Shown here: positions 15,633 through 38,396 of the stretch, piece by piece | How positions within the stretch are numbered: position 1 is the first letter of the stretch | Layout of the letters: each line of letters begins with the position of its first letter | NCBI GenBank assembly: GCA_964385885.1 | Contig: CAYLRT010000012.1 | Location: 1-45,425, forward strand | Direction: 5' to 3' | DNA: 45,425 nucleotides | From: an uncultured Anaerolineales bacterium | Lineage (GTDB): Bacteria; Chloroflexota; Anaerolineae; B4-G1; SLSP01 | Program-made: the position numbers and the translations under genes | Notes under the pieces: generated by a model | Told to the model about the DNA's origin: nothing | Databases searched by the model: none | What the model saw: only the letters and a program-made list of their open reading frames with translations

Positions 15633-16599
15633 GAGGCGGCTCCTCGCATGCTTTGATAATCGCTTCTAGGCTGGCGATGGCGATTTGCTGGTCTTCCGAT
15701 GAAACGGTTGTCGCTGCACTGTAGCGGGCCTTTTCGAAGAGGCGTGTAAGCGCGACTACAGCGTCTTGCGGCAGGTTGGCGTGCAGAAGGTGATCCGTAA
15801 ACTCACGGGCTGTGACCGATCGTTCTCGAAGAAGCCCTCGGCGCTCCCGAACGACTTGGTTCATGTCCGCGTAACACCGGATGATGATATTCCGCAGATC
15901 GCCCCCTTGTGAGATATCAGCGATGGCAGTTCTGGCATGGGCAGCGATCTGGTGTAGCGTCCTGGCCTTGGCTCTGGAGCGGTGTACTGCACGGATGATA
16001 CCGGCCGTCGCGCCGGCTATGAGCATCGCCGCTAACAGACTTAAGGCTCGAGCGATCCAGGGAGAGATACGTTCCGGGCTGAAGGACTCGTCGATGGGAG
16101 ACTCTGCTGCCAGAGAGCCAGCGATCGGTAATGGATTAAGCGTATTCCCTTCGATGCCTTGTTGCTGCTGCATCTGTCTTGATAACACGGCAGATACGGC
16201 AGCGAAGAGCACCGCCAAGGTTAGTGCGGTGCGCAATACACGACGTCGTAACTCAGGTGACAGCAGGATGAGGATGACAGCGACAGGAAAGAACACCAGC
16301 GCAATGGTGAAAATGATTCGATAGAGGTCAAGGATGAGCTGCCCGCCAGGCGGTGGGCTCGAAATGGGGCCCGCGATGCCCATCTGGAATTCGCCAATGA
16401 GAAACTGCAAGATCTGCCAAAGTGGCACGCCAGGGCGGAGATTCAGGTGAGGGACGCTTGCTGAAAGCAAGATCGCGGCAGCGATTGACAGCAACCCCAA
16501 CATTGTGCCTATGAGTTTGCTCAGCGATCTTGACATACTGTCAAGTATAGGCTCGCTCGGAAGAGAGTCAAGGATCACCTTCCCTTCGCGTAGTGACAA
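15604..16599 (-). CDS. DUF4129-domain membrane protein
   Basis: Several TM helices, then the C-terminal block IIRCYADMNQVVRERRGLLRERSVTAREFTDHL...LTRLFEKARYSA, typical of DUF4129. The start is uncertain: TTG at 16599, alternative ATG at 16536. Confidence 0.75.
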   Translation of the reverse strand: MSLREGKVILDSLPSEPILDSMSRSLSKLIGTMLGLLSIAAAILLSASVPHLNLRPGVPLWQILQFLIGEFQMGIAGPISSPPPGGQLILDLYRIIFTIALVFFPVAVILILLSPELRRRVLRTALTLAVLFAAVSAVLSRQMQQQQGIEGNTLNPLPIAGSLAAESPIDESFSPERISPWIARALSLLAAMLIAGATAGIIRAVHRSRAKARTLHQIAAHARTAIADISQGGDLRNIIIRCYADMNQVVRERRGLLRERSVTAREFTDHLLHANLPQDAVVALTRLFEKARYSAATTVSSEDQQIAIASLEAIIKACEEPPHEHNAYDKT

Positions 16600-22813: not shown

Positions 22814-23305
22814 ATGTCATTGAGGCGCAGTAAGGGGCAGGGTCAGGTCGCGGGAAGAGAGCTTCCGCCGGTGGCTCCGCGACAGGGGACAGCAACAGCG
22901 ATCGAATCGACCATCGGTCCCAACACACATGTGAAAGGAACCATCCAGGGAGATGGTGGCCTTCGCGTAGAGGGAATTGTGGAAGGGACTATCGAGTTGA
23001 CGGGCAATCTTGTGGTCACCGAGAGCGCCAAGATCCGTGCGAACATCAAGGCCAACAGCATTTCAGTGGCAGGCGCTGTCCAAGGGGACATTGCGGCAAA
23101 TCGAGTGGAGATCTTGGAAACAGGTCGGGTGTGGGGAGATCTGACAGTCAAGTCACTGCTGATCAACGAAGGGTCCTATTTCCGCGGTCAGACGCTCATG
23201 CCCCAGGACTTAAAACCGCCGCAGCTACAGGGACCCACACAAGCAGGCGCGAGCTCTGGCGCCGATGCCGGTACGGTGGTGGATGTCAAGGCATCACCCA
23301 AGTAG
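22814..23305 (+). CDS. bactofilin (polymer-forming cytoskeletal protein)
   Basis: Beta-helical repeat pattern IGPNTHVKGTIQGDGGLRVEGIVEGTIELTGNLVVTESAKIRANIKANSISVAGAVQGDI... with a Pro/Gln-rich tail. GGGGAGGA SD. Confidence 0.9.
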   Translation: MSLRRSKGQGQVAGRELPPVAPRQGTATAIESTIGPNTHVKGTIQGDGGLRVEGIVEGTIELTGNLVVTESAKIRANIKANSISVAGAVQGDIAANRVEILETGRVWGDLTVKSLLINEGSYFRGQTLMPQDLKPPQLQGPTQAGASSGADAGTVVDVKASPK

Positions 23306-23614
23306 TGTTTCTTGGGCGAAGTGGGGTGGGGAGGCCAGGTTATCGGAGTTCCTGTTCATGGCGCGATGGTCTGGCCTTCTCTCATGTGCCAGGGATGTTA
23401 AGGTGCCTAGGAGACCCGTCTTAACATGGTTGGACAATGATCCATTGACGGGAAGGGGAATTTCACGGACAATTGAGACAGCTGAGGGATGACAGCGGTG
23501 CTGCGCGTTGAGACTATGTCCGAGTTTGACCTTGAGGTATAATATTGATATCTACTGCTTGGGATGCTGTGCGGATTTGACTTGGGCTGACGATTGATAG
23601 TGTGGGAGGGCCAG

Positions 23615-23899
23615 ATGAAAATCACAGTAGAGTTCGCGGGGCTGGCGCGGGTTCTTACGCAGCAGTCTCAGATTAGTCTTGATGTCTCCGAGGAAGTGAC
23701 CTTCCGGGAGATCTTGCTCCGCTTAGCTGAGATGTTTCCACAGTTGGTAGGGGATGTGATCGATCCTACGCTTGGCACTCTTAGATCCTCCAATATGTTA
23801 AATTTGAACGGCAAGCGTATGATCCAGCCGTCTGAGATGGACACAAGCCCGCAGGAAGGCGATCGTCTCATCCTCATGTCCATTCTTGCCGGTGGATAG
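23615..23899 (+). CDS. MoaD/ThiS-family ubiquitin-like small protein ending in Gly-Gly
   Basis: 94 aa, MKITVEFAGLARV...EGDRLILMSILAGG-stop. GGGAGGG SD before the ATG at 23615. Confidence 0.8.
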   Translation: MKITVEFAGLARVLTQQSQISLDVSEEVTFREILLRLAEMFPQLVGDVIDPTLGTLRSSNMLNLNGKRMIQPSEMDTSPQEGDRLILMSILAGG

Positions 23900-24084
23900 T
23901 CAGAGCGTCATGGTTGCACGTCGAGGATGCACTTGCGAACCAGCGCCGGGATTGTCGTCGTGGCCGGCGGTTGCAAGGGCAAACTGCTTGCAGAATGTAG
24001 ACCGAACATCTCAAGTACGCCTCGACAAGTCTGCAGCAACTGAGATGAAGAGCCCTTACGTCTCATACCGAGAAGGAGGTTTCC

Positions 24085-25971
24085 ATGTATGGTTATCACG
24101 GGAAGATACTTCATATTGATCTGACAAATCGTGAGACTTGGGTGGAGGAGAAGCCGGAGTCCTGGTACAAGATGTGGATCGGCGGTGTAGCAATGGCGAC
24201 CCGTCTGTTGTGGGAAAACATCAAACCGGGATGTGACCCTCTTTCGCCGGAGAACCCGATTTGCATAGCGAATGGCATTTTTGCAGGCACCCCTGTGCCT
24301 GTAGGAGCGAAATATGGCCTGGCGTCTAAATCCCCACTGACGGGCTGGGTGGGGGATAGTCTCTCAGGGAGTTGGTTCTCGGTGGCACTGAAGCGCACGG
24401 GATGGGATGGTATTGTCATCCATGGGGCCAGCGAGAAGTGGGTGAACGTCTTCGTGGATGATGAACGTGTCCAGTTCCGTGATGCGGAAAAGTACCTGGG
24501 ATTGGGTACCTTTCAGACCGAGGAGGCGATCCGCGAGGATCTAATGGACGATCAAGTGCGTTCCGCGACTATTGGGCCCGCTGGTGAGAACCTGGTTCTC
24601 TATGCGAACGTCACCAACGACGGCCGCCAAGCCGGCCGGACTGGCCATGGCGCGGTCTGGGCATCGAAAAAGCTCAAAGCGCTATCGGTTCGGGGGACGA
24701 AGGGAGTGCGTGTTGCTGATCCAGAGACTTTGATGAAGTTGTCATTCGATATCATCCAGGCGGCCCAGGGCCCCCATACAGCGAAATATCGCATCTTAGG
24801 CACCGTGACCAACGTGCTCAACATGAACAAGCTCGGGCTACTGCCGACTCGGAACTTTCAAGAGGGTGTCTTTGAGCATGCGGAGCTGGTGAGTGGCGAG
24901 TATCTCGAGGAGCATCACAAAGTCAAGAAGATCGCGTGTGCGCAATGCCCTATTGCATGTGAGCAGGTCTCCGAAGCCAAACAAGGGATGTATGCTGGCG
25001 CCCGCACAGGTATTGACTATGAGTGTCTGTTTGCCAATGGCCCCAATTGTGGCATCAGCGACATGAATGCGATCATCAAGATGATTGATCTGTGTGACCG
25101 GGGCGGGATGGACGCGATGACCAACGGCGTTGTCGTCTCGTGGACTATGGAGTCGTTCGAACGTGGTGTGCTAAAGAAAGAAGACTTCCGATGCGCGAAG
25201 TACCCGGAGGGCTTCGAGCCGTACTTTGGCAATGCTGAAGCTGGCGTTACGCTTACCGAGATGATTCGCGATCGCGAGGGCATTGGCGCGTTACTCTCTC
25301 TGGGGGTGAAGCAAGCCAGCGAGCAAATCGACAAAGAGAGGGGCACGGAGAGCTACAGATGGGCTATGCACATCAAGGGATTGGAGAACCCCGGATATGA
25401 TGCCCGTGGTCTAAAAACCTTCGCTTTGGGGTTGGCTGTAGGCACCCGGGGGGGGTGTCATAACCGGACGGCTGCATACGATCCTGATATCAAAGGTGTG
25501 GTCGATCGCTTTTCAGTCGATGAGACCCGCGGTGAACTGGCCAAGAGCACGGAAGAGTATGCGGCAGTCTATGACACATTGCCTCTGTGTAAGTTCATTC
25601 GTCGATGTTTTACTGGCAAAGCGGATCGATCAGGGGCGTGGCCAGCGATTGCCCAGCTTATCAACGCCACGGTCGGATGGGATTTTGATTATGACGCGGT
25701 TGACCTGATCGGGGTGCGCGCCACAACCATCAAGAAGGCTTTCAATATCCGCGAGGGATGGACCCGTGATGACGATCATCTCCCGTATCGGACGCATCAC
25801 GACCCCATGACAAAGGGCCCCTCGGCTGGTCACGTCGTGACGAAAGAGGAGTTGGAATATCTCAAAGATCTCTACTACAAGGCCAAGGGCTGGACACCGG
25901 AGGGCTTGATACCGAAAGCCAAGTTGATTGAGCTCGGCATGGAAGATGTTGCCGAGGAAATCGGCGTCTAG
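24085..25971 (+). CDS. aor: tungsten/molybdopterin aldehyde:ferredoxin oxidoreductase family enzyme
   Basis: The N-terminus MYGYHGKILHIDLTN...WIGG...DPLSPENP and blocks KSPLTG, IGPAGENLV, GRTGHGAVWASKKLKA and ACAQCPIAC ([4Fe-4S] cysteines) align collinearly by eye with Pyrococcus-type AOR. AAGGAGG SD. Confidence 0.93.
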   Translation: MYGYHGKILHIDLTNRETWVEEKPESWYKMWIGGVAMATRLLWENIKPGCDPLSPENPICIANGIFAGTPVPVGAKYGLASKSPLTGWVGDSLSGSWFSVALKRTGWDGIVIHGASEKWVNVFVDDERVQFRDAEKYLGLGTFQTEEAIREDLMDDQVRSATIGPAGENLVLYANVTNDGRQAGRTGHGAVWASKKLKALSVRGTKGVRVADPETLMKLSFDIIQAAQGPHTAKYRILGTVTNVLNMNKLGLLPTRNFQEGVFEHAELVSGEYLEEHHKVKKIACAQCPIACEQVSEAKQGMYAGARTGIDYECLFANGPNCGISDMNAIIKMIDLCDRGGMDAMTNGVVVSWTMESFERGVLKKEDFRCAKYPEGFEPYFGNAEAGVTLTEMIRDREGIGALLSLGVKQASEQIDKERGTESYRWAMHIKGLENPGYDARGLKTFALGLAVGTRGGCHNRTAAYDPDIKGVVDRFSVDETRGELAKSTEEYAAVYDTLPLCKFIRRCFTGKADRSGAWPAIAQLINATVGWDFDYDAVDLIGVRATTIKKAFNIREGWTRDDDHLPYRTHHDPMTKGPSAGHVVTKEELEYLKDLYYKAKGWTPEGLIPKAKLIELGMEDVAEEIGV

Positions 25972-26017
25972 ACTGTTTGTCGACGAGACTCTGGATTAGA
26001 TGACAGGAGAGCGATCA

Positions 26018-26509
26018 ATGGCCTTACCTGCGACTTCGAAGTACAAATACATTACGTGTGACCCAGAGAAATGCATTGGCTGCCAGCTTTGCGAATATAT
26101 CTGTTCCTATACCAAAACCGGCGAGTACAATTCCTACCGCAGTCGGATCCGTACAGTACGGGTGGATGAAATCCTGATTACAGCGATTGCATGCCGCACT
26201 TGTGAGAATGCTCCATGCGTCGCTGTCTGCACGCGGGATGCACTGACCCAAGATCCAGAGACAGGTGTCATTCGTGTGGATGCAGAGTTGTGCGACGGTT
26301 GCGCTTGGTGCATCGAAGCATGCGATTTTGGCGCTATCTCCATCAATCCAGCCACAAAACTTGCAGAGATCTGCGATCTCTGTGAGGGAGAAGAAGACGG
26401 CCCTCAATGTGTAATTTGGTGCCCGAAGGATGCCCTGGAGCTAACCACACCGGAACAACGTGCTCAGAAGGCCCGACGCAAGCTGGCCACAGAAGAGGCC
26501 CTGCGCTGA
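26018..26509 (+). CDS. multi-[4Fe-4S] ferredoxin-like electron-transfer subunit
   Basis: Motifs CIGCQLCEYIC, CRTCENAPCVAVC, CDGCAWCIEAC and CDLC...C..WCP. AGGAGA SD before the ATG at 26018. Confidence 0.85.
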   Translation: MALPATSKYKYITCDPEKCIGCQLCEYICSYTKTGEYNSYRSRIRTVRVDEILITAIACRTCENAPCVAVCTRDALTQDPETGVIRVDAELCDGCAWCIEACDFGAISINPATKLAEICDLCEGEEDGPQCVIWCPKDALELTTPEQRAQKARRKLATEEALR

Positions 26510-26673
26510 CACAGCTGTCCACGGTGTGAAATGGGCTACTTGGAGCGTGTCCCACAGAACTGAGCGTGACAGGCTCGGCCTCGAGTCACGCCTGCTGCTG
26601 CCGAGTTCAGACGCGTGTACAATCCCATGAATTCCGCTTTTGTCGCGCGATAGCTCTGAGGAGAGATGGTGCT

Positions 26674-29232
26674 GTGGTTGAAGAAACAAAGCTAGAACCC
26701 GAGAAGTCCGAGGAATTGCGCATAGGTGTTTATGTCTGTCATTGTGGTTCCAACATCGCGAGTGTGATTCCGCCGTCTGAGGTGGTGGAGTTCGCCAAGA
26801 CATTGCCTGGTGTGGTCCTTGCCAAAGATCATCGGTACATGTGCTCGGACCCTGGCCAGTCCATGCTTCAGGATGACATCAGGCAATACGGGCTCAATCG
26901 AATTGTCGTGGCCGCGTGCACGGTTGCGATGCATGAACCCACGTTCCGGTCGTGTATCTCGGACGCGGGACTGAACCCGTTTCTATTTGAGATGGCAAAC
27001 ATTCGTGAGCACGATTCGTGGGTTCATGGTCATGAGAAGGAGCAAGCTCTTCAGAAGGCGAAGGAGATTGTAGCGGCCGCTGTTGCAAAGGTCAGCCACG
27101 CTTACCCACTGGAGATGTTTAAGGTGCCGGTCACTCGACGCGCGCTGGTGATCGGTGGGGGAATTGCCGGGATTTCCGCCGCGCTCGACCTCGCCGACAT
27201 GCAAATAGAGACGTACCTGGTTGAGAAGTCTCCCTCTATCGGCGGTCACATGGCTCAGCTCGACAAGACTTTTCCCACGATGGACTGCTCGATCTGCATT
27301 GAGGCACCCAAGATGGTCGACGTGGGTAAGAACAAGTTCATCCATTTGTTGACCTACTCTGAGGTGAAAGAGGTCTCGGGCTATATTGGGAACTTCCATG
27401 TGACAATCGAGAAGAAGCCACGCTACGTTGTGGAGGATCGCTGCACAGGGTGCGGCCTATGCGCGGAGGTGTGCCCTATTGATGTTCCAAATGACTTTGA
27501 GGAGGGGCTGGGGCCACGCAAGGCTATCTATGTCCCTCTGGCCCAGGCGGTCCCCTCTATATATACCATCGATAGGGATGCCTGTATAGAATGCTACAAG
27601 TGTGTCGAGGCCTGTGGCCCGTTGGAGGCTATTAATTTCGCTCAGCAGCCAGAGATCGTCGAGATAGACGTCGGTACGATCATCGTGGCGACAGGTTTCG
27701 ATATCTGGGATCCATCGCCGATCGAGGAATACGGCTATGGTGTCTTTGATAATGTCACAACCATGATGGAGATCGAACGGCTGCACTGTGCCGGTGGCCC
27801 GACGCTAGGCCAGTTTGTTCGCCCCTCAGACGGGCAGGTCCCGAAGACACTGGGCTTGATCCAGTGCGTAGGCTCTCGCGACAAGCGGTATCACGAGTAC
27901 TGCTCCGGCTTCTGTTGCATGTACACTATCAAGAATGCATTGCTCCTGAAGTGGCTCTATCCCGACATGGATATCACGATCTTCCGTATTGACATTCGTG
28001 CGCCGGGTAAGACCTACGAGGAATTCTACGAGCGTGCTCGGGAAGCCGGCGTTCACTTCGTGCAGGGGCGCCCCGCAGAGATCAGAGAGGATCCGGTTAC
28101 CAAGAATCTGATTGTCCGTGCTGACAATGTGAGTCTGGGCAAACCAATGGAATATGAGTTTGAAATGGTGGGATTGGCGACAGCGGCCATTGCCACAGAG
28201 GGATCAGATCTCCTGGCACGGACGTTGACGGTCGCCACAGACACGCATGGCTTTTTCCTGGAATCGCATCCCAAGTTGAAGCCTATTGACGCCCCCACTG
28301 AAGGCATCTACTACGCAGGAGCGGCCCAGGGGCCGAAAGACATTCCTCAGAGTGTAAGTCAAGCCAGCGGAGCTGCCGGGCGCGCGGCCCGCGTCCTCTC
28401 CCATGACACATGGGAGATTGATCCCATCGTCGCTTACGTCCATCCTGATCGCTGTATCAATGCGCGTGGCGGCAAGTGTTCGATCTGTGCCCAGGTCTGT
28501 CCCTACGGCGCAGTTGACAACCGTCCCGGCTCTGGGGAACCGTCACGTATCATCCCTGCTAAGTGTCACGGTTGCGGGACGTGTGTCGCTGAATGCCCTC
28601 ACAATGCCATTACTCAGCATCACTTCACGGATGGACAAGTGCTGGCACAGATCCATGCGTTCCTGGCAGATAAGCCAGAGGAGAAAGTCCTGGCTTTTGT
28701 GTGTCGCTGGTGCAGCGGCATGGGAGCAGACAACGCCGGGGTCAGTCACTTTGAGTATCCGGCCAACACGCGCCTTATCATGGTGATGTGTGCTGGCCGC
28801 GTGGATCGGGACTTTGTGTTGGAGGCATTCCGGTTGGGTGCTGGTGCTGTTCTGGTGTCAGGTTGTCATCCCCAGGACTGTCACTACATCGATGGCCGCC
28901 AGCATGCTGAGGAACGCATGGCTAGAGTCGCAAAGCAACTCGACCGTTTAGGGATCACTCCCGGCAGGTTCAGGGTTGAATCTGTTTCGGCCACTGAGGG
29001 CGCTAAATGGGCTCAGATCATGCGGGAGATGGGTGGGTTGGTTAAAGAACTTGGTCCAGAGCGGATCGCTGAGGAAAATGCTCAGATGAGGCCCCATCTC
29101 ACGAAGTTCTTGCGTCGACTTGGCGAGATCCCGGGCGTGTCTGAAGTGCTGATTGGAAGCCGAGCAGAGGCTCGGCTGGCTGCAGTGGACATGCCGTTGG
29201 TTCAGTTGGCCAAGACAACTGGAGGCGAATGA
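26674..29232 (+). CDS. hdrA: HdrA-like FAD/FeS protein fused to a C-terminal MvhD (FlpD) domain
   Basis: RIGVYVCHCGSNIA, ALVIGGGIAGISAALDLA (FAD), CVGSRDKRYHEYCSGFCCMY and two ferredoxin-type motifs. The C-terminus FVCRWCSGMGADNAG...MCAGRVD...LVSGCHPQDCHY is MvhD-like. The probable GTG start at 26674 lies 8 nt after GAGGAGAG. The track ORF begins at 26566. Confidence 0.9.
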   Translation: MVEETKLEPEKSEELRIGVYVCHCGSNIASVIPPSEVVEFAKTLPGVVLAKDHRYMCSDPGQSMLQDDIRQYGLNRIVVAACTVAMHEPTFRSCISDAGLNPFLFEMANIREHDSWVHGHEKEQALQKAKEIVAAAVAKVSHAYPLEMFKVPVTRRALVIGGGIAGISAALDLADMQIETYLVEKSPSIGGHMAQLDKTFPTMDCSICIEAPKMVDVGKNKFIHLLTYSEVKEVSGYIGNFHVTIEKKPRYVVEDRCTGCGLCAEVCPIDVPNDFEEGLGPRKAIYVPLAQAVPSIYTIDRDACIECYKCVEACGPLEAINFAQQPEIVEIDVGTIIVATGFDIWDPSPIEEYGYGVFDNVTTMMEIERLHCAGGPTLGQFVRPSDGQVPKTLGLIQCVGSRDKRYHEYCSGFCCMYTIKNALLLKWLYPDMDITIFRIDIRAPGKTYEEFYERAREAGVHFVQGRPAEIREDPVTKNLIVRADNVSLGKPMEYEFEMVGLATAAIATEGSDLLARTLTVATDTHGFFLESHPKLKPIDAPTEGIYYAGAAQGPKDIPQSVSQASGAAGRAARVLSHDTWEIDPIVAYVHPDRCINARGGKCSICAQVCPYGAVDNRPGSGEPSRIIPAKCHGCGTCVAECPHNAITQHHFTDGQVLAQIHAFLADKPEEKVLAFVCRWCSGMGADNAGVSHFEYPANTRLIMVMCAGRVDRDFVLEAFRLGAGAVLVSGCHPQDCHYIDGRQHAEERMARVAKQLDRLGITPGRFRVESVSATEGAKWAQIMREMGGLVKELGPERIAEENAQMRPHLTKFLRRLGEIPGVSEVLIGSRAEARLAAVDMPLVQLAKTTGGE

Positions 29233-29840
29233 TGGCATCGAACACCCACGGTGTGCTGAATCCTTTTACGATCGAGGTGCTTGAGACGCAAGGTGGACAA
29301 CTGGTGCTGCAATGTTATCAGTGTGGGACTTGCTCGGGATCCTGCCCTGTCATTGACGAGATGGAGTATGGCCCGCGGCGTATCTTGTACATGATCCAAA
29401 TGGGTATGGAGCAGGCAGTCCTGAGCAGTAAGGACATTTGGCGATGCGTGTCGTGCTATTCATGTGCGAACCGATGCCCGCGTGGCATCGAGATCACTGA
29501 CTTGATGGCTGACCTACGGCGTCTAGCTACGGTCAAAGGCTATGCGCGGGACAAAGAGGCGGAATTCGGTCAGGCCTTTGCGGAGACGATTGCAGCTCAC
29601 GGACGGCTGTTTGAACCAGAGCTGTTGATGCGTTATTACCTCCGGGTTCTGGACGTGAAGAGCCTAGTCGAAATGGTACCCCTGGGTTTGAAGATGTTGG
29701 CCAAAGGGAAACTTCCTTTCCTACCTGAGAGGATTGATGACCCAGAAGACATGAAGGCAACGGAGGTCGCTCCTTCTACGAGATTGAGGGTTGCCACCGT
29801 GTTTCTGCGGAGACCAGAGAAGGAGTCGGCGGAGCCATGA
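29229..29840 (+). CDS. hdrC: HdrC-like iron-sulfur subunit
   Basis: CYQCGTCSGSCPV and CVSCYSCANRCPRG motifs. The start overlaps the hdrA stop (ATGA). Confidence 0.88.
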   Translation: MMASNTHGVLNPFTIEVLETQGGQLVLQCYQCGTCSGSCPVIDEMEYGPRRILYMIQMGMEQAVLSSKDIWRCVSCYSCANRCPRGIEITDLMADLRRLATVKGYARDKEAEFGQAFAETIAAHGRLFEPELLMRYYLRVLDVKSLVEMVPLGLKMLAKGKLPFLPERIDDPEDMKATEVAPSTRLRVATVFLRRPEKESAEP

Positions 29841-30718
29841 ATGAAGTCCAAGCTTATGGTTACTATCCTGGATGCAGTCTGGCCTCAAGCGCCAAGGAAT
29901 ATGACCTCTCGGTACGTGCTGTGTTCGCACACTTGGGCCTTCCGTTGGTGGAGATTGAGGATTGGAACTGCTGCGGCGCGGTGCATGGAGACGTGAACGA
30001 CGCTGAGGCTGGCCTCGTTCTTCCATCGCGGAATCTCGCGCTGGCGGAGTCCCAGGGTTTTTCAGTCGTCATAGCCCCTTGCAGTGGCTGTTACCGCAAT
30101 CTGAGGCGAGCAAGTAAGCGCCTGGACGCAGACCGCACTGCTCGCGAGAAAGTAAATGCCCGCCTAAAGGGCGGGTTGAACGTTACCAGCCATATTGAGG
30201 TGATGCATCCGCTTTACCTGCTTCTCAGGGATTACGGACTTGACCGGATAGCGGCTGCGGTATCGAATCCGCTGGACGGATTACGGGTGGCGAGTTACTA
30301 CGGCTGTATGTTGACCCGCCCGCGAGATGTCTTTGACAGCCCAGAAAGGCCGTCGGGCCTAGATGATTTGGTCAGGGTGCTCGGCGCCCAGCCGGTTGAC
30401 TACCCGATGAGGGCCAAATGTTGTGGGGGGGCGTTGGCTATCTCTCATAGCGATGTCACAGTGCACCTTACGGGGGATATCCTGAAGTCGGCGAGGCAAG
30501 CTGAGGCCGACATCGTGATGCTTGCCTGTCCCATGTGTCATACTGCCTTAGACGGTTACCAGGAGAAGGTTGAGAGAGCGCAACATGAGCATTTGGGACT
30601 GCCGGTGCTCTATTTCACGCAGGTCATGGGACTGGCGTTTGGACTTGACCCGAGACAGTTGGGTTTCGAGCGACACATGGTGTCCCCGCGTCCGCAACTG
30701 GCGAAGCTCGGATTCTAG
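29837..30718 (+). CDS. hdrB: HdrB-like subunit with two CCG domains
   Basis: YYPGCSL...WNCCGA and YYGCMLTRP...KCCGG motifs. The start overlaps the hdrC stop (ATGA). Confidence 0.9.
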   Translation: MNEVQAYGYYPGCSLASSAKEYDLSVRAVFAHLGLPLVEIEDWNCCGAVHGDVNDAEAGLVLPSRNLALAESQGFSVVIAPCSGCYRNLRRASKRLDADRTAREKVNARLKGGLNVTSHIEVMHPLYLLLRDYGLDRIAAAVSNPLDGLRVASYYGCMLTRPRDVFDSPERPSGLDDLVRVLGAQPVDYPMRAKCCGGALAISHSDVTVHLTGDILKSARQAEADIVMLACPMCHTALDGYQEKVERAQHEHLGLPVLYFTQVMGLAFGLDPRQLGFERHMVSPRPQLAKLGF

Positions 30719-30743
30719 TTTCTAGTTGGGAGGAATTCACACT

Positions 30744-31793
30744 ATGAAGCGTGGGACTACACTGAAACACCGAACGAACCAGACGCTGGTCCTGGAGCGG
30801 AAGATGTTGACGCATCATGATGTCCTGACATGGGATCTGACGCGTTGCGTCGGGTGCCAGATTGGTCCCAAGATCTGCCCAAAGGACGCGTTGAGCCATA
30901 GTGGGGGAGAGATTGTCGATGGCCGTGTTGTCTCCAAGCTTATGGTCGATGTGGACCCCACCCTTTGTGTCTTCTGTGGTATGTGTGTGGTGATGTGCCC
31001 GGTGAATGCCATCACGATGACGCTTAACGGCGAGCCGTACGTGCCTGTCCAAGCCTATGAGGCGTTCCCCGTACTTATCGAGTCAACGACGTTTGATCCC
31101 CAGGCTTTCGATTGGGCACGGAAGGACTTCGTCATTGAGAATTGCCCGACTTCCGCCATCGACTACGACGAAGCGCACCATACACTAACGGTGGATGACA
31201 CACGGTGTATTCGATGCCGTCAGTGTGAAGTAGCTAGTGATGGGGCTTTTGAAGTTGTCCAGCCTTGGGAAGGAACGGTCACGTTGCGGCGCGACAAATG
31301 CATCGAAGGTTGCTTGGCCTGTGCTGATGTTTGTCCCACCCGTGCGCTGCACATCAATGAGGAAGGTGAGTTAGTCCTTGCAGACTATTACTGTATCAAG
31401 TGTGGAGCTTGCATGCAGGTGTGTCCGGTAAAGCCAGAGATGGAAGATTATGAGGTGACTTTCACCTCACAAGGCGTCGAAGTTACAAAGACTTTACAGC
31501 GTGTCGCCAACCGTGACGAGCTTCCTATATGGGTTGAGCGGTGGCGTGTGAAGCATACGCCGGTCCAAAGTGGCGCTTGGCTCGAAGCTCTGGAGAGGCT
31601 GGCCGATGCCAAGGCTGGCATGGTTGAGTTAGAGCGTAAGCGTGCTATCAAGCGCCGAGACCTTATTGTTGCGCTCAAAGGAGGTCGGGCGTTGCAGGAG
31701 CGCGAAGCTCAGCGTCGCCAAGCACAGTTGAGTGCGCTCAAAGGTGGTGATGCCTTCGTGGAAGAAAGCCATTCTGAGAACATGATAGCATAG
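30744..31793 (+). CDS. polyferredoxin-like protein with a charged helical C-terminal tail
   Basis: Motifs CVGCQIGPKICP, CVFCGMCVVMCP, CIRCRQCEV, CLACADVCP and CIKCGACMQVCP. GGGAGGAA SD before the ATG at 30744. The last ~100 aa are Arg/Glu/Ala-rich. Confidence 0.8.
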   Translation: MKRGTTLKHRTNQTLVLERKMLTHHDVLTWDLTRCVGCQIGPKICPKDALSHSGGEIVDGRVVSKLMVDVDPTLCVFCGMCVVMCPVNAITMTLNGEPYVPVQAYEAFPVLIESTTFDPQAFDWARKDFVIENCPTSAIDYDEAHHTLTVDDTRCIRCRQCEVASDGAFEVVQPWEGTVTLRRDKCIEGCLACADVCPTRALHINEEGELVLADYYCIKCGACMQVCPVKPEMEDYEVTFTSQGVEVTKTLQRVANRDELPIWVERWRVKHTPVQSGAWLEALERLADAKAGMVELERKRAIKRRDLIVALKGGRALQEREAQRRQAQLSALKGGDAFVEESHSENMIA

Positions 31794-31831
31794 CCCGTCC
31801 CATGTGGGCATGATAAACTCGCCTGCCCTTA

Positions 31832-31864
31832 CAGCGAGGGGTGACGAATTGTCGTCCCTCGCTG
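31832..31864 (+). terminator. hairpin downstream of the polyferredoxin gene (possible terminator/attenuator)
   Basis: CAGCGAGGG (31832-31840) pairs with CCCTCGCTG (31856-31864): a 9-bp perfect stem with a 15-nt loop, followed by TTGTGCTT. Confidence 0.45.
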
Positions 31865-32017
31865 TTGTGCTTCAGCAATTCCAAATATGGCGGGTTCACA
31901 AGGCCGTGACCTTCATCTAAGGCCGGACTGTGCAGCACTTGACCCACAATCACGTGGTTTATGGCCGCAGAATAGGGCTGGCCGGCCTTAGCAGGTTTCA
32001 TATTTGGGAATTGCTGG

Positions 32018-32045
32018 TTGTGCTTTGTCCGGTCAGTGTTATAAT
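32018..32045 (+). promoter_or_regulatory. putative promoter for the nuo operon (TTGTGC - 16 nt - TGT-TATAAT)
   Basis: TTGTGC at 32018-32023 and an extended -10 TGTTATAAT at 32037-32045, 28 nt upstream of the nuoA ATG (GGAGG SD at 32060-32064). Confidence 0.5.
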
Positions 32046-32072
32046 CGTTGGCTGAGTTTGGGAGGCGTTGCT

Positions 32073-32429
32073 ATGCTTCATCCCTATGCGCAACTTGGGA
32101 TTTTTCTGTTGATTGCCACAGTGATTGGTGTCGCACCAATTGCGTTGGCATGGTTGGTTAGCCCAAAGAAACAGAATCCCCGCAAGTCCCAGATCTATGA
32201 AAGCGGTAATCCTCCTTTTGGGGAGGCCTGGATCGAGTTCAAACCTCAGTATTATTTGTATGGCTTGGCCTTCCTTGCCTTTGACGTCGAGGCCGCGTTT
32301 CTGTTCCCTTGGGCTCTGGCTTACAACAAGCTGCCATTGTTCGCCGTTGTCGAAGCAGCTCTCTTCATTGCTCTGCTAGGCGTTGGCCTTATCTATGTGT
32401 GGCGCAAGGGATGGCTGACATGGATGTGA
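32073..32429 (+). CDS. nuoA: NADH-quinone oxidoreductase subunit A
   Basis: 118 aa with three TM helices, YESGNPPFGEAW...FLAFDVEAAFLFPWA. The track ORF start at 32004 would overlap the promoter. Confidence 0.92.
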   Translation: MLHPYAQLGIFLLIATVIGVAPIALAWLVSPKKQNPRKSQIYESGNPPFGEAWIEFKPQYYLYGLAFLAFDVEAAFLFPWALAYNKLPLFAVVEAALFIALLGVGLIYVWRKGWLTWM

Positions 32430-33715
32430 TGTCCGATTTGTGGCTCCCAATTGTACGGTCGCTCGGCATCGCTCTGTTCCCCGTTGTGGCAGTTGTCTTC
32501 CTCATCTGGGTGGCACGCAAAGTCATTGCGCGCATGCAGGATAGGCTTGGCCCCACCAATGCGGGAACTCCAGCGGGCCCAGATGCCATTTTCCAGACTG
32601 TTGCCGACGCAATCAAGATCCTGACTAAAGAACTAGTTATCCCGGAAGGTGCGGACCGGACCGTCTTCATTGCTGCGCCGATGCTTGTTACCGCGGTAGC
32701 CGTCGCAGTTTGGGCGGTGATTCCTCTGGGCCCCGGAGAGTTCCAGGTGGTAGATCTGGAAATCGGGGCTTTCTATGTAGTGGCTATGTCATCCCTGGCT
32801 CCTTTTGCTATGATCATGGCCGGATGGAGCTCCCGGAACAAATACGCAGAGGTAGGGGCCTTCCGGGCAGTCTCACAGATCATCGGGTACGAAATTCCTC
32901 AGACGTTGGCATTGTTGGTCCCTGTATTGCTTACAGGTTCACTGTCGCTTCAGAAAATTATCGAGGCTCAGCGAGTGCCATACATTGTGCTTGCCCCGTT
33001 TGCCGCACTTGTTTATTTCCTTGCCACAATGGCAGAGGTAAACCGACTTCCCTTTGAGCTCGCAGAGGCAGACTCCGAGATCGTAGCTGGTTACTTCACT
33101 GAATACAGTGGGATGATGTTCGGGTCTTTCTATCTGGCTGAGTTCATCAACAATCTTACGGCTTCTGTTCTGTTTTCCATCCTATTCCTGGGAGGGTGGC
33201 GTGGCCCAGGCGTAGACGCTGTTCCGCTGTTAGGCCCTGTTTGGCTTCTGGTGAAGGCGTTCTTGGTGTTCAATTTCCTTAACGTCTTCTGGGCTGCTAT
33301 GCCTCGGCTCCGTATTGATCAAGTTTTGGCCTTCAATTGGAAGTTCCTGGTCCCTCTGGCACTTCTCGTGCTGCTGACCACCGCGCTCGTGGATAAGCTG
33401 ATCGTGTATCTGGGCTATACGACCGACGGGATGAGGGCTGTGGGTCTGATTTTGGCCAATCTGGTGCTTGGCGTGGGCCTGGTGGGTTATCTGTTTGCTC
33501 TGGGACGCCGGAGAAAGCGGGCTGGTGTGAGTGTCCCCGAGGAGTTCCTGCCGTTGCTCTCGTCTGGTTCACATGGCGCCTTGAGAATGCGCTCAGCAGA
33601 TGTGGTGCCCCTGTCGCGTCATAATGGGACGTCGGGCATGCGGTACTCCCGAGATGAGAGGGGGAAAAGCAGCACCGTCGAACTGCAAGCAAACCACATC
33701 TCGAAAGGTGAGTGA
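32411..33715 (+). CDS. nuoH: NADH-quinone oxidoreductase subunit H, with an unusual hydrophilic C-terminal extension
   Basis: ARKVIARMQDRLGP...ADAIKILTKE and PFELAEADSEIVAGYFTEYSGMMFGSFYLAEF motifs. Candidate ATG starts are at 32411, 32420 and 32429 (the last overlaps the nuoA stop as TGATG). Confidence 0.92.
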   Translation: MADMDVMSDLWLPIVRSLGIALFPVVAVVFLIWVARKVIARMQDRLGPTNAGTPAGPDAIFQTVADAIKILTKELVIPEGADRTVFIAAPMLVTAVAVAVWAVIPLGPGEFQVVDLEIGAFYVVAMSSLAPFAMIMAGWSSRNKYAEVGAFRAVSQIIGYEIPQTLALLVPVLLTGSLSLQKIIEAQRVPYIVLAPFAALVYFLATMAEVNRLPFELAEADSEIVAGYFTEYSGMMFGSFYLAEFINNLTASVLFSILFLGGWRGPGVDAVPLLGPVWLLVKAFLVFNFLNVFWAAMPRLRIDQVLAFNWKFLVPLALLVLLTTALVDKLIVYLGYTTDGMRAVGLILANLVLGVGLVGYLFALGRRRKRAGVSVPEEFLPLLSSGSHGALRMRSADVVPLSRHNGTSGMRYSRDERGKSSTVELQANHISKGE

Positions 33716-33720
33716 GTGCG

Positions 33721-34218
33721 ATGCCGATTGGGCAGATAGCATTCCTGGGCTTCGCGGTTGTCTCAGTGATAGCGGCATTGCGGGTGGTGACCTCGCGTCG
33801 TGTATTCCACGCCGCTCTCTGGCTCATTGTTGCTTTCTTTGGGGTGGCAGCGGTCTACATGTTGTTAGAATCACCTTTCATGGCGGCTATTCAGATCTTC
33901 CTCTACATTGGTGGTGTGGCGGTGCTGACCGTCATCGCGATTATGGTGACAAAAGGTGTCATGCGAGAAGATCGTCGTATTTTGAACCGCCCTGTGGCTG
34001 CCGGGGTTGTCTCGCTGGCTCTCTTCGTAACGATGACCTGGATGATCATTCAGTTGCCTCTTCCAGAGGAGCCCGTCTTTCCCGTTGTTGAGGGCTCCCT
34101 GAGCCTATTGGGAGCTGCGCTGGTGGATCCGAAAGGATACCTGCTCCCCTTTGAGGTGGTCTCTGTGATGCTATTAGCCGTTTTGGTTGTCTCGCTCTAC
34201 CTTGGCAAGGAGCGATGA
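33721..34218 (+). CDS. nuoJ: NADH-quinone oxidoreductase subunit J
   Basis: FLGFAVVSVIAALRVVTSRRVFHAALWLIVAFFGVAAVYMLLESPFMAAIQIFLYIGGV. Start is ATG 33721 or GTG 33712. It follows nuoH directly, leaving no room for nuoI. Confidence 0.9.
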   Translation: MPIGQIAFLGFAVVSVIAALRVVTSRRVFHAALWLIVAFFGVAAVYMLLESPFMAAIQIFLYIGGVAVLTVIAIMVTKGVMREDRRILNRPVAAGVVSLALFVTMTWMIIQLPLPEEPVFPVVEGSLSLLGAALVDPKGYLLPFEVVSVMLLAVLVVSLYLGKER

Positions 34219-34221
34219 TTC

Positions 34222-34542
34222 ATGGGCGCTTCGTCTGTGCCGCTTGCATGGTACCTGATCCTGGGTTCCGCGCTGTTTTGCATTGGTGTGTACGGTGTCT
34301 TGGCCACCCGGAATCTGGTCGTTATCATCATGTCCATCGAGTTGATGCTCAATGCCGTCGTGCTAGATCTGGTAGCCTTTGCCCGGTTCATTGAGCCAGC
34401 TCGGGTGACAGGCAAGGCGTTTGGCATCATTCTCTACGCTACCGCTGCTGCCGAAGCCGCTTTGGGGCTGGCATTGGTCATATCGATCTGGCGTACTGAG
34501 AACACGGTTGAGGTCGAAGAGATCGACGTACTTAAGGGTTAA
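34222..34542 (+). CDS. nuoK: NADH-quinone oxidoreductase subunit K
   Basis: 106 aa, LILGSALFCIGVYGVLATRNLVVIIMSIELMLNAV...AAAEAALGLALV. AAGGAG SD. Confidence 0.93.
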   Translation: MGASSVPLAWYLILGSALFCIGVYGVLATRNLVVIIMSIELMLNAVVLDLVAFARFIEPARVTGKAFGIILYATAAAEAALGLALVISIWRTENTVEVEEIDVLKG

Positions 34543-34564
34543 TCATTCGCTTGGACATCGTGAC

Positions 34565-36781
34565 ATGAACATTCGAGATCTCACAATGGTAGCGTGGCTA
34601 GTCCCTGCAGGGCCCCTTCTGGCCTTTGTGTTGATAACGTTGGGGGTGCATCGGAGCCGCGGCCTCAGTCGTGTGCTCGCATTGGTAGGCATCTTTGTAG
34701 CCCTGGTGCTATCGATGATCCTGCTCAGTGAGGTGGTGAGGCAGCCCACTGTGCTCGCGTCTTTGGAGAACACGCAAGACGGAAAGCGCCTTTCGTGGTT
34801 TCGAGCTGGGGTGGAGGAGGCCGCCATCGGTGTACAGGTGGACCTCGTCGATGGGGCTGCCCTGGGCATGGTGACAATCGTGTGTCTGATGATCTTTGTC
34901 TACAGCTTGGGGTATATGCATGGAGATCCCAAGACGAGCCGGTTTTTCGCCTATATCTCCCTCTTCGCAGGTGCCATGCTGGGGGCTTTAGTCGTTGACA
35001 ACCTACTAGCCTTCTTCATCTTCTGGGAGATCATGGGCACGTGTTCCTATCTGCTGATCGGTTTCTGGTGGGAGCGAGAGTCGGCTTACAAAGCCGCACT
35101 GAAGGCATTTCTGGTCACTAAGACTGGAGATGCCTTTATGCTGCTCGGTTTGGTTCTTCTGTACAGCCAGGTGGGCACCCTCTCTTACGCGGGACTGTTC
35201 GACCAGGCAACTGTAAGCAAGCTGGCCCAGACTCCGTTCATCGGCGGCGTCTCAGTAGCCACCATGGCAGCTTTGCTGCTGTTTGGTGGTACCATTGGAA
35301 AGAGCGCGCAACTTCCGCTTCATGTGTGGCTTCCTGATGCCATGGAGGGCCCGACTCCCGTGTCCGCCTTGATTCACGCGGCGACCATGGTATCGGCGGG
35401 CGTCTACTTAATGATCCGGGCATATCCACTCCTTGAGGCCTCACAAGCGATGCCGGTGCTGGCCGTTGTGGGTACCGTTACAGCGGTCTATGCTGCGGTT
35501 GTTGCCTTGGCCCAGCGAGACATCAAGCGTGTCTTGGCCTTTTCCACTATCAGTCAGTTGGGCTATATGGTTGCTGCGCTGGGCATTGGTGCATACGCAG
35601 CCAGCGTGTTTCATCTTATCACGCACGCATTCTTCAAAGCCCTGTTGTTCATGGCGGCTGGGTCTGTCATTCATGGCATGGAACATGGTCATCATCAGTT
35701 ACATGGTCATGCCGTACCACAGGGTGAAGCGGACTTCGACCCCAACGATATGGCGCTCATGGGGGGATTGGCATTTCGAATGCCGGTTACCGCGATCACG
35801 TTTCTGATTGGGAGTCTCTCCCTATCGGGTTTCCCTCTGGTGACCGCTGGTTTCTGGTCGAAAGATGAGATCTTGGCCGAGGCTTGGCGATCTAGCCCCT
35901 CTGTTTTCTGGGCGTTGACGGTGACGGCTGGGCTCACGGGGTTTTATGCTGCTCGTCAGATTGGCCTTGTGTTTCTTGGGGCTCCCCGCTCACGGGTGGC
36001 TGTGCACGCTCGAGAAAGCGGCGCAGTCATGGTGCTACCGTTGGTGATCCTGGCCCTCTTCTCAATCAGCCTCGGGTGGTTGGGTATACCGCGGGAGTTC
36101 CCTTTGCTCGGGCGCGTTGTGCCTTTCCACTTCATGGATCTCATAAGTCATTCCATCTCTGTGGGGGAGGACGCCGCCAAGGCTTTGACCGGTGGGAGCT
36201 TCGTCTGGCAGCCCCTGGCCCTTAGCGTTCTCTTCGGCTTGGGCGGGCTTGTCGCGGGATGGTTCGTATACAGCCGGTATTCAGCTAGGGCGGACAATGA
36301 GTTTCGTGACCCCGTAGAGGGGGCGCTAAGCTATCTGCATACAGGGTGGCTGTATCGTGCTATGGTCCACCGGTTTTACTTCGATGAAGCCTACCAGGCG
36401 TTGTTTGTGCGTCCAACGCTTGCGCTTGCAGACGCCATGGCATTGGTGGACCACAGGATTATTGACGGGATTGTGGTCTCCCTCGCTAGTGGTTTCGGCG
36501 GAAGGGGCATCATCTTGCCCGCTGCTCGTGCTGCTGACAGACATCTTTGGGATGGTCTGGTCAATGCTGTGGGAGCGGTCAGTCGTTCTGTGGCCCAGGT
36601 GTCGCTGTTCCTCGATACGGACCTGATTGACGGCGCGGTGAACGCAATTGCTCGCGGAACGCGCACTCTTGGGCGGTGGGTGAGGCGCACCCAGACCGGA
36701 CATCTGCCTGATTATCTTTGGAACGCATTCGCAATCGTGCTTGTTCTCGTTGCCGCTTTGCTTCTATTTCATCGCTTTTGA
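34565..36781 (+). CDS. nuoL: NADH-quinone oxidoreductase subunit L
   Basis: WEIMGTCSYLLIGFWWERESAYKAALKAFLVTKTGD, SAQLPLHVWLPDAMEGPTPVSALIHAATMV, and a C-terminal lateral-helix region. The ATG at 34565 lies after the nuoK stop. Confidence 0.93.
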   Translation: MNIRDLTMVAWLVPAGPLLAFVLITLGVHRSRGLSRVLALVGIFVALVLSMILLSEVVRQPTVLASLENTQDGKRLSWFRAGVEEAAIGVQVDLVDGAALGMVTIVCLMIFVYSLGYMHGDPKTSRFFAYISLFAGAMLGALVVDNLLAFFIFWEIMGTCSYLLIGFWWERESAYKAALKAFLVTKTGDAFMLLGLVLLYSQVGTLSYAGLFDQATVSKLAQTPFIGGVSVATMAALLLFGGTIGKSAQLPLHVWLPDAMEGPTPVSALIHAATMVSAGVYLMIRAYPLLEASQAMPVLAVVGTVTAVYAAVVALAQRDIKRVLAFSTISQLGYMVAALGIGAYAASVFHLITHAFFKALLFMAAGSVIHGMEHGHHQLHGHAVPQGEADFDPNDMALMGGLAFRMPVTAITFLIGSLSLSGFPLVTAGFWSKDEILAEAWRSSPSVFWALTVTAGLTGFYAARQIGLVFLGAPRSRVAVHARESGAVMVLPLVILALFSISLGWLGIPREFPLLGRVVPFHFMDLISHSISVGEDAAKALTGGSFVWQPLALSVLFGLGGLVAGWFVYSRYSARADNEFRDPVEGALSYLHTGWLYRAMVHRFYFDEAYQALFVRPTLALADAMALVDHRIIDGIVVSLASGFGGRGIILPAARAADRHLWDGLVNAVGAVSRSVAQVSLFLDTDLIDGAVNAIARGTRTLGRWVRRTQTGHLPDYLWNAFAIVLVLVAALLLFHRF

Positions 36782-36798
36782 TGGGGAGGATGCTAACA

Positions 36799-38382: not shown

Positions 38383-38396
38383 TAGGGAGGCTTGCC

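Follow-up and report, generated by a model that had tools for sequence, protein, structure and literature searches.

Known partners of electron-bifurcating complexes built on HdrA are hydrogenase, formate dehydrogenase, Flx, MetFV and Bam. A 2026 scheme divides tungsten oxidoreductases (WORs) into five classes and recognizes HdrA-like partners for benzoyl-CoA reductase (BCR) only. Only one characterized complex, Bam, joins a tungsten enzyme of the aldehyde:ferredoxin oxidoreductase (AOR) family and its Fe-S subunit by hard wiring to a bifurcating module of the HdrA type that has an MvhD-like adaptor and a subunit resembling HdrBC (bioRxiv 10.64898/2026.04.10.717634). Linkage of AOR with HdrA(BC) apart from BCR is not described in the literature that we searched; an earlier mention in reviews of HdrA neighborhoods is possible. 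Here we describe a seven-gene block, at positions 23615 to 31793 of contig CAYLRT010000012.1 from an uncultured Anaerolineales bacterium (assembly GCA_964385885.1), in which genes for an AOR and its electron-wire subunit precede genes for HdrA::MvhD, HdrC, HdrB and a polyferredoxin. The whole stretch analyzed, 45,425 nt long, is called the window below. We put the probability that the block encodes one modular HdrA-based bifurcating complex, with AOR-WorS as its electron input, at roughly 0.5.

The AOR-Hdr gene block

Seven consecutive open reading frames (ORFs) on the forward strand span 23615 to 31793, matching in every checkable detail the seven codirectional genes that a preliminary description of this DNA had placed there. 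The first, worX (23615..23899), encodes a 94-aa ThiS/MoaD-like protein with a Gly-Gly C terminus (...LAGG). Its matches to ThiS (4.9e-4, Pfam) and SAMP1 (5.2e-8, NCBIfam) are weak, and in relatives, too, the gene lies directly upstream of the AOR gene. A "ThiS-like WorX" adjoins many WOR genes and is presumed to be a cofactor maturation factor (PMC13328260); the protein encoded here is probably a maturation factor for the pterin cofactor and not an enzyme subunit.

The AOR gene (worL, 24085..25971) encodes a 628-aa catalytic subunit of the tungsto(molybdo)pterin AOR family, with full-length matches to AFOR_N (5.1e-70) and AFOR_C (5.7e-109) in Pfam. The best solved relative is Pyrococcus furiosus AOR (1aor, 1.7e-109), followed in order by WorL of Acetomicrobium mobile WOR1 (9mqx_D), 9g7j, AorB (8c0z_A), FOR, WOR5 and finally BamB (4z3w_A), the weakest match in the family (8e-49, over residues 2 to 424 only). 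In the phmmer alignment to 1aor, Thr243, Glu313, Tyr427 and His448 are identical, as are the cluster residues Cys288, Cys291, Cys295 and Cys494 (P. furiosus AOR numbering); all eight are among the residues listed as conserved in aldehyde-oxidizing members (PMC13328260). The catalytic subunit is thus of the Pyrococcus type and not a BamB, as had been proposed from alignment by eye. No tup or mod transporter gene was found in the 45-kb window.

The next gene, worS (26000..26509, with a second ATG at 26018 as a possible alternative start), encodes a 169-aa electron-wire subunit. Its 16 cysteines fall in four CxxCxxCxxxC-type motifs, and WorS would therefore carry four [4Fe-4S] clusters. Among solved proteins it is related to WorS of A. 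mobile WOR1 (9mqx_E, 1.8e-24) and AorA (8c0z_C, 8e-21), whereas BamC gave only 9e-10. Judged by these matches, the AOR half of the block is a canonical WorLS. As for direct fusions of AOR to Hdr proteins, the AOR representatives of unusual length proved to be fusions of the AOR::OMP-decarboxylase-like or WorS::WorL kind, and none contained Hdr.

The Hdr half begins with hdrA::mvhD (26674..29232), an HdrA2-type gene for a FAD/Fe-S core of the bifurcating type with a C-terminal [2Fe-2S] adaptor domain. Its ORF is open from 26566; GTG 26674 is the likely start, given the alignment and an upstream GAGGAGAG ribosome-binding site. The protein matched 5odc_A at 6e-245 over residues 13 to 666, and five solved methanogen HdrA chains aligned end to end (6e-245 to 1e-201). 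A TrxR-like FAD domain and N-terminal, inserted and C-terminal Fe-S domains are all present, and the conserved HdrA motif reads DCSIC. At the C terminus lies a fused FlpD domain (2.7e-43, Pfam), and residues 665 to 803 align with four solved MvhD chains. The best NCBIfam model, that of the HdrA2 fusion type (NF040770), matched over its full length with 1039.4 bits, which is below its cut-off of 1100.

HdrC (29229..29840) has two CxxCxxCxxxC motifs for two [4Fe-4S] clusters and matches TIGR03290 at 1e-28. HdrB (29837..30718) has two CCG domains (3.2e-25, in two stretches), the sites of non-cubane [4Fe-4S] clusters, and aligns end to end with 5odc_B, a Methanothermococcus/Methanothermobacter-type HdrB reference (1.4e-44), with all ten cysteines kept. 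The start of hdrC overlaps the stop of hdrA in an ATGA at 29229 to 29232, and the start of hdrB that of hdrC at 29837 to 29840; both overlaps, reported earlier, can be read in the sequence, and they would couple translation across the two junctions.

The last gene encodes an FmdF/FwdF-like polyferredoxin (30744..31793) of 349 aa from ATG 30744, or 355 aa from TTG 30726, with 19 cysteines, about five clusters and a charged, helical C-terminal tail. It matches the NCBIfam FwdF model at 1.1e-31. Its best solved relative, aligned from the N terminus, is FmdF of the Methanospirillum Fdh-Hdr-Fmd complex (7bkb_K, 6.7e-27), followed by FwdF of the M. maripaludis Hdr-Vhu-Fwd assembly and then MvhB. We also considered that the gene might be a relocated nuoI and rejected this, the NuoI-type scores being 39 bits (PDB) and 66 bits (TIGR01971, cut-off 113) against 98 to 110 for FmdF/FwdF. 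Taken together, these alignments identify the Hdr half as a canonical methanogen-type HdrA, HdrC and HdrB set with an FmdF-like polyferredoxin.

HdrB scored nearly equally on the NCBIfam SdhE and HdrB models (188 and 183 bits). This bears on a reading in which the block forms a hub without bifurcation or has an acceptor other than a disulfide: aldehyde electrons would pass through HdrA and HdrCB to a thiol/disulfide pool or, in SdhE-like fashion, to menaquinone, with the polyferredoxin as an alternative exit. Besides the score on the quinone-site model, the adjacent respiratory nuo membrane genes would fit such a hub, and aldehyde is reducing enough for every proposed acceptor without coupling. 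We nevertheless think it very unlikely, since the HdrA architecture is nearly identical to that of proven bifurcating HdrA and the polyferredoxin is universally kept with the frame, which argues for an essential third partner at low potential.

The gap between worS and hdrA is 164 nt (26510 to 26673), as described before, provided that GTG 26674 is the hdrA start. A scan for promoters and terminators over 23200 to 32500 gave counts at or below shuffle expectation, with no forward-strand terminator in the intergenic gaps, and was uninformative about transcript structure; the whole block may be read as a single transcript. Rfam gave nothing at gathering thresholds across the window, and 23250 to 24150 gave only a spurious match to an internal ribosome entry site. 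A riboswitch or leader upstream of worX or the AOR gene was rejected, as the alignment of the worX-AOR spacer from 11 loci is conserved only at the ribosome-binding site. In some relatives this spacer holds short tandem repeats, of the GGGGCAGGAAGCAAG type in L023:9900-9990 and of the CATTCGC/TAATTCG type in L002 and L030; the window has none.

Cassette exchange and linkage in related loci

The closest database proteins and loci were all from metagenome-assembled genomes of Anaerolineae or Anaerolineales, including L004, which is 97% identical and is labeled "uncultured Anaerolineales bacterium." We compared 30 loci of GTDB species, retrieved with the AOR, and three loci from contig look-ups. 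The order WorX-AOR-WorS-HdrA::MvhD-HdrC-HdrB-polyferredoxin was kept in every locus with enough sequence, and 28 of the GTDB species loci retain the block as far as their sequence reaches; since this holds in all evaluable relatives, the arrangement is not a chance juxtaposition.

In our view, the strongest evidence for one functional system is cassette exchange in sister Anaerolineae. Clades with AORs 72 to 79% identical to that of the window keep the frame WorX-AOR-WorS-HdrA::MvhD-HdrC-X-polyferredoxin, and the position X, which is HdrB in the window clade, has been swapped. In L109 and L120 (Pelolinea sp. according to NCBI), X consists of FlpD, an Fe-S protein, a sulfhydrogenase-beta/AsrA-like protein and an NAD-binding sulfhydrogenase-gamma/AsrB-like flavoprotein, genes that together make up a Flx-like NAD(P)H module. 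L082 has an HdrC::FlpD fusion, an Fe-S protein and the formate dehydrogenase alpha subunit FdhA (TIGR01591, 873 bits, cut-off 666), while L121 and L122 combine an HdrC::FlpD fusion with VhuG- and VhuA-like [NiFe]-hydrogenase subunits. L068 has an HdrD-like HdrC::HdrB fusion after FlpD. No separate hdrB gene was found within 10 kb in any of these loci. The genes of the sister-clade cassettes overlap or lie 8 to 59 nt apart, and the polyferredoxin always closes the frame as its last gene, with orthologues 58 to 77% identical in Anaerolineae and 38% in Bathyarchaeia. That AOR-WorS and the polyferredoxin stay with HdrA while the middle module is exchanged is hard to reconcile with unrelated neighbors. 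The preliminary description had named, as an outcome that would speak against its reading, hdr genes that keep to another partner such as metFV or flxABCD elsewhere in related genomes; this was not seen, and the Flx-like, FdhA and hydrogenase modules sit inside the frame that runs from AOR to polyferredoxin.

The sister hdrA genes have an in-frame TGA at the conserved motif (DCSI[U]; L109:13062-13064), and in L120 to L122 hdrA was called as two ORFs of 202 and about 630 aa; gene callers split hdrA genes that contain a TGA. The HdrA and MvhD genes of a Lokiarchaeial locus (L038) are likewise interrupted by in-frame TGA at conserved Cys positions (L038:5033-5035, ~6441 and ~6594). TGA at conserved HdrA cysteines implies a selenocysteine-containing HdrA in Pelolinea-like Anaerolineae and Asgard archaea.

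Beyond the query's own cluster, a search of 1.84 billion representatives of 50%-identity clusters yielded no AOR with an identity above 45%, so the AOR clade is tight and isolated. Among AORs without the linkage, those nearest to the clade are ordinary enzymes of the WorLS or WorL kind: in L034 (Chloroflexota), AOR-WorS lies in an operon with a branched-chain amino acid transporter, IorAB, a PaaK-like ligase and an ACT protein, and no Hdr, and L036 and L039 have lone AORs without Hdr. Linked AORs occur well beyond the clade. L037 (Bathyarchaeia) has AOR-WorS-HdrA followed by an HdrC::HdrB fusion with two CCG domains; WorS abuts HdrA, and a 38%-identical orthologue of the polyferredoxin lies on the opposite strand, together with two further AORs. 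L038 (Lokiarchaeia) has the order HdrA-MvhD-polyferredoxin-WorX-AOR-WorS-Fe-S protein-AOR2. Further linked loci are L047, from a second Chloroflexota lineage with a 56%-identical AOR; L052, from Sigynarchaeota/Lokiarchaeota; and L104, which is unassigned and whose AOR groups with P. furiosus AOR.

We then used an alignment of three Hdr-linked AORs to scan metagenomes, which retrieved 80 loci. Linkage was counted in loci with at least 4 kb on both sides of the AOR gene, onto which the window, Bathyarchaeal and Lokiarchaeal proteins were mapped. HdrA lay within the locus in all 15 cases with an AOR at least 80% identical to that of the window and in all three at 70 to 80%, so that aor-worS and the hdr genes, whose co-conservation had been in question, are linked throughout this range. 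The fraction fell with growing distance from the window AOR, to one of two loci at 46 to 70%, two of four at 40 to 46% and 1 of 14 below 40%. In a neighbor-joining tree, a rough one made from BLOSUM62 distances without support values, the Hdr-linked AORs of Anaerolineae were monophyletic and the archaeal linked AORs fell in neighboring clades.

A second or third AOR, about 30% identical, is frequent in Hdr-linked loci, sometimes with its own small ferredoxin and ThiS-like gene (L037:5946-7832 and 14564-16396, both on the reverse strand; L038:11609-13387; L121:7253-9475, reverse strand; L104:6969-8813, reverse strand, and 10001-11863). One Hdr hub may thus be fed by several tungsten enzymes. 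At L043:12595-15939 (reverse strand) we found a 1,114-aa HdrA ("HdrL"/type III HdrA-like) into which a GltD/NfnB-like NAD(P)H domain (Fer4_20 and Pyr_redox_2) is inserted. Genes for HdrB, HdrC, FlpD and Flx-like proteins accompany it, and the set faces a PaaK-ACT-AOR-WorS operon in convergent orientation.

Downstream of the block in the window, 279 nt after the polyferredoxin stop codon, a contiguous nuoA-H-J-K-L-M-N cluster (32073-39926, forward strand), overlooked in the preliminary description, encodes only the membrane arm of complex I. No nuoB, C, D, I, E, F or G was found in the 45-kb window, nuoI being missing between nuoH and nuoJ, and a membrane arm without NuoB and NuoD cannot be redox-driven by itself. 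The same nuo set follows the polyferredoxin gene in 11 relatives, only nuoJKL follows it in L020, and in five to seven the next genes are directly Mur ligase or other genes; in the sister clade, nuoJKLMN (L080) or nuoN (L077) lies directly upstream of worX. The association of nuo genes with the block is thus frequent and not obligatory, and we do not count them as part of the system.

About 17 kb upstream of the block, at 3092 to 7235, genes for a Crp-family regulator and a DUF438-hemerythrin-PAS protein lie beside a gene for hybrid-cluster protein (Hcp). The regulator and the DUF438-hemerythrin-PAS protein recur a few kilobases upstream of the AOR-Hdr cluster in L120 (608-2775) and L122 (4046-6242), and the Crp, DUF438-hemerythrin-PAS and Hcp genes may form a regulatory neighborhood responsive to redox state, nitric oxide or O2. 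On the reverse strand at 12684 to 16599 lies a cluster for a MoxR AAA ATPase, DUF58 and DUF4129, followed by an Asp/Glu racemase and an InhA-like metalloprotease. It is syntenic in L001 and L002 and appears to be unrelated to the AOR-Hdr block.

Proposed electron flow and its direction

From these comparisons we infer complex formation, bifurcation, the direction of electron flow, the assignment of wires to branches and the nature of the HdrB substrate. With WorX maturing the cofactor, AOR would oxidize an aldehyde to the acid at its tungstopterin, and the electrons would pass from the [4Fe-4S] cluster of AOR through the four clusters of WorS to the [2Fe-2S] cluster of the MvhD domain and on to the FAD of HdrA. 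There each electron pair would be split. One electron would leave at low potential through the ferredoxin domains of HdrA and the FmdF-like polyferredoxin to ferredoxin; the other would leave at higher potential through HdrC and the two non-cubane clusters of HdrB to a disulfide or other acceptor. In the sister lineages, a Flx-like module that reduces NAD(P)+, a formate dehydrogenase or a hydrogenase of the Vhu/Mvh type takes the place of HdrB. Across the family, aldehyde oxidation would then be coupled to reduction of ferredoxin and of a second sink, be it a disulfide, NAD(P)+, CO2 or H+, and in fermentative or syntrophic cells the coupling would draw aldehyde oxidation forward where the aldehyde:acid ratio is very low.

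Several observations favor aldehyde as the donor. FmdF lies on the low-potential side of Hdr in the 7bkb complex, and the polyferredoxin of the block is homologous to wires on that side. The fused MvhD is the canonical input adaptor; HdrB is a known higher-potential exit, and the modules that replace it serve classical fermenter sinks (NAD(P)+, H+ and CO2). Unlinked AOR relatives lie in amino acid catabolic operons (IorAB, PaaK, ACT), which implies aldehyde oxidation. The closest solved relatives of WorS, WOR1 WorS and AorA, pass the electrons of aldehyde oxidation on to a flavin module (PMC13328260). With aldehyde as the donor, each of the cassette variants forms a complete system of three partners. 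Comparative genomics, within its reach, supports this interpretation.

Other findings weigh against it. The first of these concern the linkage itself and lead to the reading that the two halves are mere neighbors, a ferredoxin-dependent Class II WOR (WorL and WorS, with WorX) beside an independent HdrA2-HdrC-HdrB-polyferredoxin set, held together by inherited Anaerolineae synteny. AOR and WorS are the best conserved in relatives (76 to 97% identity, with AOR, the best-conserved gene of the block, at 81 to 97%), and flanking genes go down to about 45 to 60%. The flanks (TMEM260-like, DUF4446, bactofilin and Mur ligase genes) are nevertheless syntenic too, so conservation of the locus in Anaerolineae is partly inherited with its surroundings and, in close relatives, is by itself weak evidence. 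The worS-hdrA gap, 164 nt in the window, varies in relatives from 8 nt (L002), through 38 to 59 nt in L120 to L122, up to 0.7 to 3.8 kb, unrelated genes being inserted there in L019, L022, L023 and probably L018 and L078. In L018 and L078, hdrA was not seen within 2.8 to 3.4 kb, even though the L078 AOR is 80% identical (2.8 kb being the reach in L078). In Methanosarcina acetivorans, moreover, hdrA2 and a polyferredoxin function without any AOR (PMC5296606).

We nonetheless consider mere neighborhood quite improbable. AOR-WorS and the polyferredoxin bracket a variable module in four or five cassette variants, three archaeal lineages show the linkage again in other gene orders, gaps are only 8 to 59 nt in many loci, and linkage is far commoner near the window AOR clade than among distant AORs. 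The block tolerates insertions yet stays together. Its worS-hdrA spacer is an insertion hot spot (L019:3300-7100, L022:3550-6550, L023:12530-13230, L018:2600-5977), with inserts of the defense or mobile type: a STAND/AAA NTPase, a serpin, a DUF6036 nucleotidyltransferase, a Type I restriction-modification specificity-domain protein and small toxin-antitoxin-like ORFs. A PIN gene lies between hdrA and hdrC at L002:15271-15642.

The remaining points against a bifurcating complex with aldehyde as donor concern its chemistry and wiring, and the support for a complex at all comes from the comparison of genes. MvhD is missing from the Bathyarchaeal cluster and so cannot be the general route of input. 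Near the block in the window, no disulfide carrier (DsrC, TusA or LbpA) is encoded, and CoM-S-S-CoB is an unlikely substrate of HdrB, since the host belongs to the non-methanogenic Anaerolineae. At standard potentials the acid/aldehyde couple lies at about −580 mV, below ferredoxin, and aldehyde can therefore be the "middle" donor only at low physiological aldehyde:acid ratios. The same rationale has been given for Class IV WOR1, where a low ratio raises the couple toward the potential of ferredoxin and an exergonic acceptor pulls the reaction (PMC13328260). Finally, both characterized tungsten- or molybdenum-pterin enzymes that are wired to an HdrA-type module by polyferredoxin-type subunits, Fmd through FmdF and BamB through BamC, are low-potential acceptors.

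These last points raise the question of whether the machine runs in reverse. AOR-WorS would then be the low-potential output and would reduce carboxylic acids to aldehydes, independently of ATP, at about −580 mV; reduced ferredoxin would deliver electrons by way of the polyferredoxin and MvhD, or a hydride donor would load the FAD directly. At the flavin the electrons would be bifurcated, those below the potential of ferredoxin going through WorS to the tungsten site, and the energy would come from the simultaneous, exergonic reduction of the HdrB substrate, whose place NAD+, H+ or CO2 would take in the sister loci. At standard potentials it is ferredoxin and not aldehyde that is the middle couple. 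FmdF, the best solved relative of the polyferredoxin, wires Hdr to a tungsten or molybdenum enzyme that reduces below the potential of ferredoxin, and the absence of MvhD in L037, where WorS nevertheless abuts HdrA, would suit acid reduction, in which every variant is again a complete three-partner system. In the structure of class II BCR, the inserted ferredoxin domain of the HdrA-like BamE feeds BamC and then the tungsten enzyme BamB (bioRxiv 10.64898/2026.04.10.717634). Yet WorS is far closer to WOR1 WorS and AorA than to BamC, the AOR keeps the aldehyde-oxidizing catalytic set and is remote from BamB, and its relatives lie in amino acid catabolic operons. To make H2, formate or NADH while reducing acids would also have no obvious logic in a fermenter. 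We regard acid reduction as unlikely on balance. An extension of it, in which the polyferredoxin docks onto the adjacent complex I membrane machinery, which lacks NuoEFG, is less likely.

Aldehyde oxidation coupled through HdrA, if it holds, bears on several organisms and questions. Anaerolineae are major fermenters in digesters and sediments, and at 90% identity the AOR clade forms hundreds of protein clusters within them. Bathyarchaeia have the linkage in rearranged form, as do Asgard archaea, on whose redox metabolism syntrophy models of eukaryogenesis draw. The series of cassettes that share one slot (HdrB, Flx, FdhA and [NiFe] hydrogenase) offers a handle on the HdrB substrate in non-methanogens: whatever its identity, that substrate would play the role of H+, CO2 or NAD(P)+, and the hydrogenase and Flx variants would be directly assayable versions of the same machine.

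Comparison with known systems

The architecture had been described as Bam-like. That an AOR is wired with HdrA-type genes stands, but the block is closer to the Mvh/Fdh-Hdr-polyferredoxin systems, with canonical methanogen-type Hdr proteins and a polyferredoxin nearest to 7bkb_K. Membership in Bam (4z3w) can be rejected feature by feature. The catalytic subunit lies in the AOR clade and not in the BamB clade; WorS has four clusters and BamC three; HdrA is a single, canonical protein where Bam has the double-HdrA fusion BamE; and HdrC and HdrB are two proteins whose distal clusters are intact, in contrast to BamD, a fused HdrBC with a degenerate distal cluster. BamGHI has no counterpart: no Complex1_51K or NuoE/G-like ORF was found with Pfam among the window ORFs of at least 150 aa, which upholds the earlier remark that a NuoEFG-like module is missing. 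The suggestion that the polyferredoxin takes its place has to be corrected, the protein being FmdF-like and no stand-in for BamGHI. The likely direction here is also oxidation, not reduction.

With the methanogen complexes MvhAGD-HdrABC and FdhAB-MvhD-HdrABC-Fmd(F) (5odc, 7bkb, 9sw6, 9sfi), the block has in common a canonical HdrA, an MvhD adaptor, HdrC, HdrB with both non-cubane sites, an FmdF/MvhB-like polyferredoxin and the modular logic of a donor with two exits. It differs in that its donor-type module has, in place of a hydrogenase or formate dehydrogenase, a tungstopterin AOR and a WorS with four clusters, MvhD is fused to HdrA, and no Fmd/Fwd stands at the far end of the polyferredoxin. 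HdrA2B2C2 of M. acetivorans likewise has an HdrA::MvhD fusion, and its hdrA2 is cotranscribed with a polyferredoxin gene (PMC5296606). Its donors are F420H2 and ferredoxin, with no AOR, whereas in the window hdrC and hdrB are contiguous with hdrA and the fusion protein scores below the NF040770 cut-off. FlxABCD-HdrABC of Desulfovibrio and syntrophs resembles the sister loci L109 and L120, which have FlpD and FlxC/B/A-like genes beside HdrA and HdrC; there, however, the Flx-like module replaces HdrB and is framed by AOR-WorS and the polyferredoxin. The window itself has no Flx genes.

On the side of the tungsten enzymes, AorABC of Aromatoleum aromaticum (8c0z) and the Class II WorLS enzymes share WorL and the four-cluster WorS/AorA wire, which in AorABC ends at a flavin subunit; in the window, the FAD subunit AorC is replaced by HdrA::MvhD-HdrC-HdrB and the polyferredoxin. 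In the A. mobile Class IV WOR1, WorABCSL (9mqx; PMC12318220), WorS is the closest of the solved proteins to WorS of the block, and WorL ranks second for the AOR. WOR1 couples aldehyde oxidation to the simultaneous reduction of ferredoxin and a second acceptor, and the Flx variant would run the same net reaction. Its bifurcating module is of the Bfu/NuoEFG type with FMN and its second acceptor is NAD+, whereas the module in the window is of the HdrA type with FAD and the second acceptor would be the HdrB substrate. No WorABC module (Bfu, NuoEFG-like) was found next to worSL in the window or in any related locus examined.

By its subunit genes alone, the 2026 scheme would file the enzyme in the window as Class II and would miss the Hdr partners. 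None of the five WOR classes pairs a canonical AOR with HdrABC, and if the reading with aldehyde as donor holds, the block would represent a sixth architectural class of WOR and a new donor/acceptor module for Hdr-type bifurcation. The pairing of HdrA2 with a polyferredoxin is already known from M. acetivorans. In net chemistry, the predicted complex would resemble Class IV WOR1 on a different, convergent bifurcating scaffold; in other respects it would be an Mvh/Fdh-HdrABC-polyferredoxin system with a new catalytic module.

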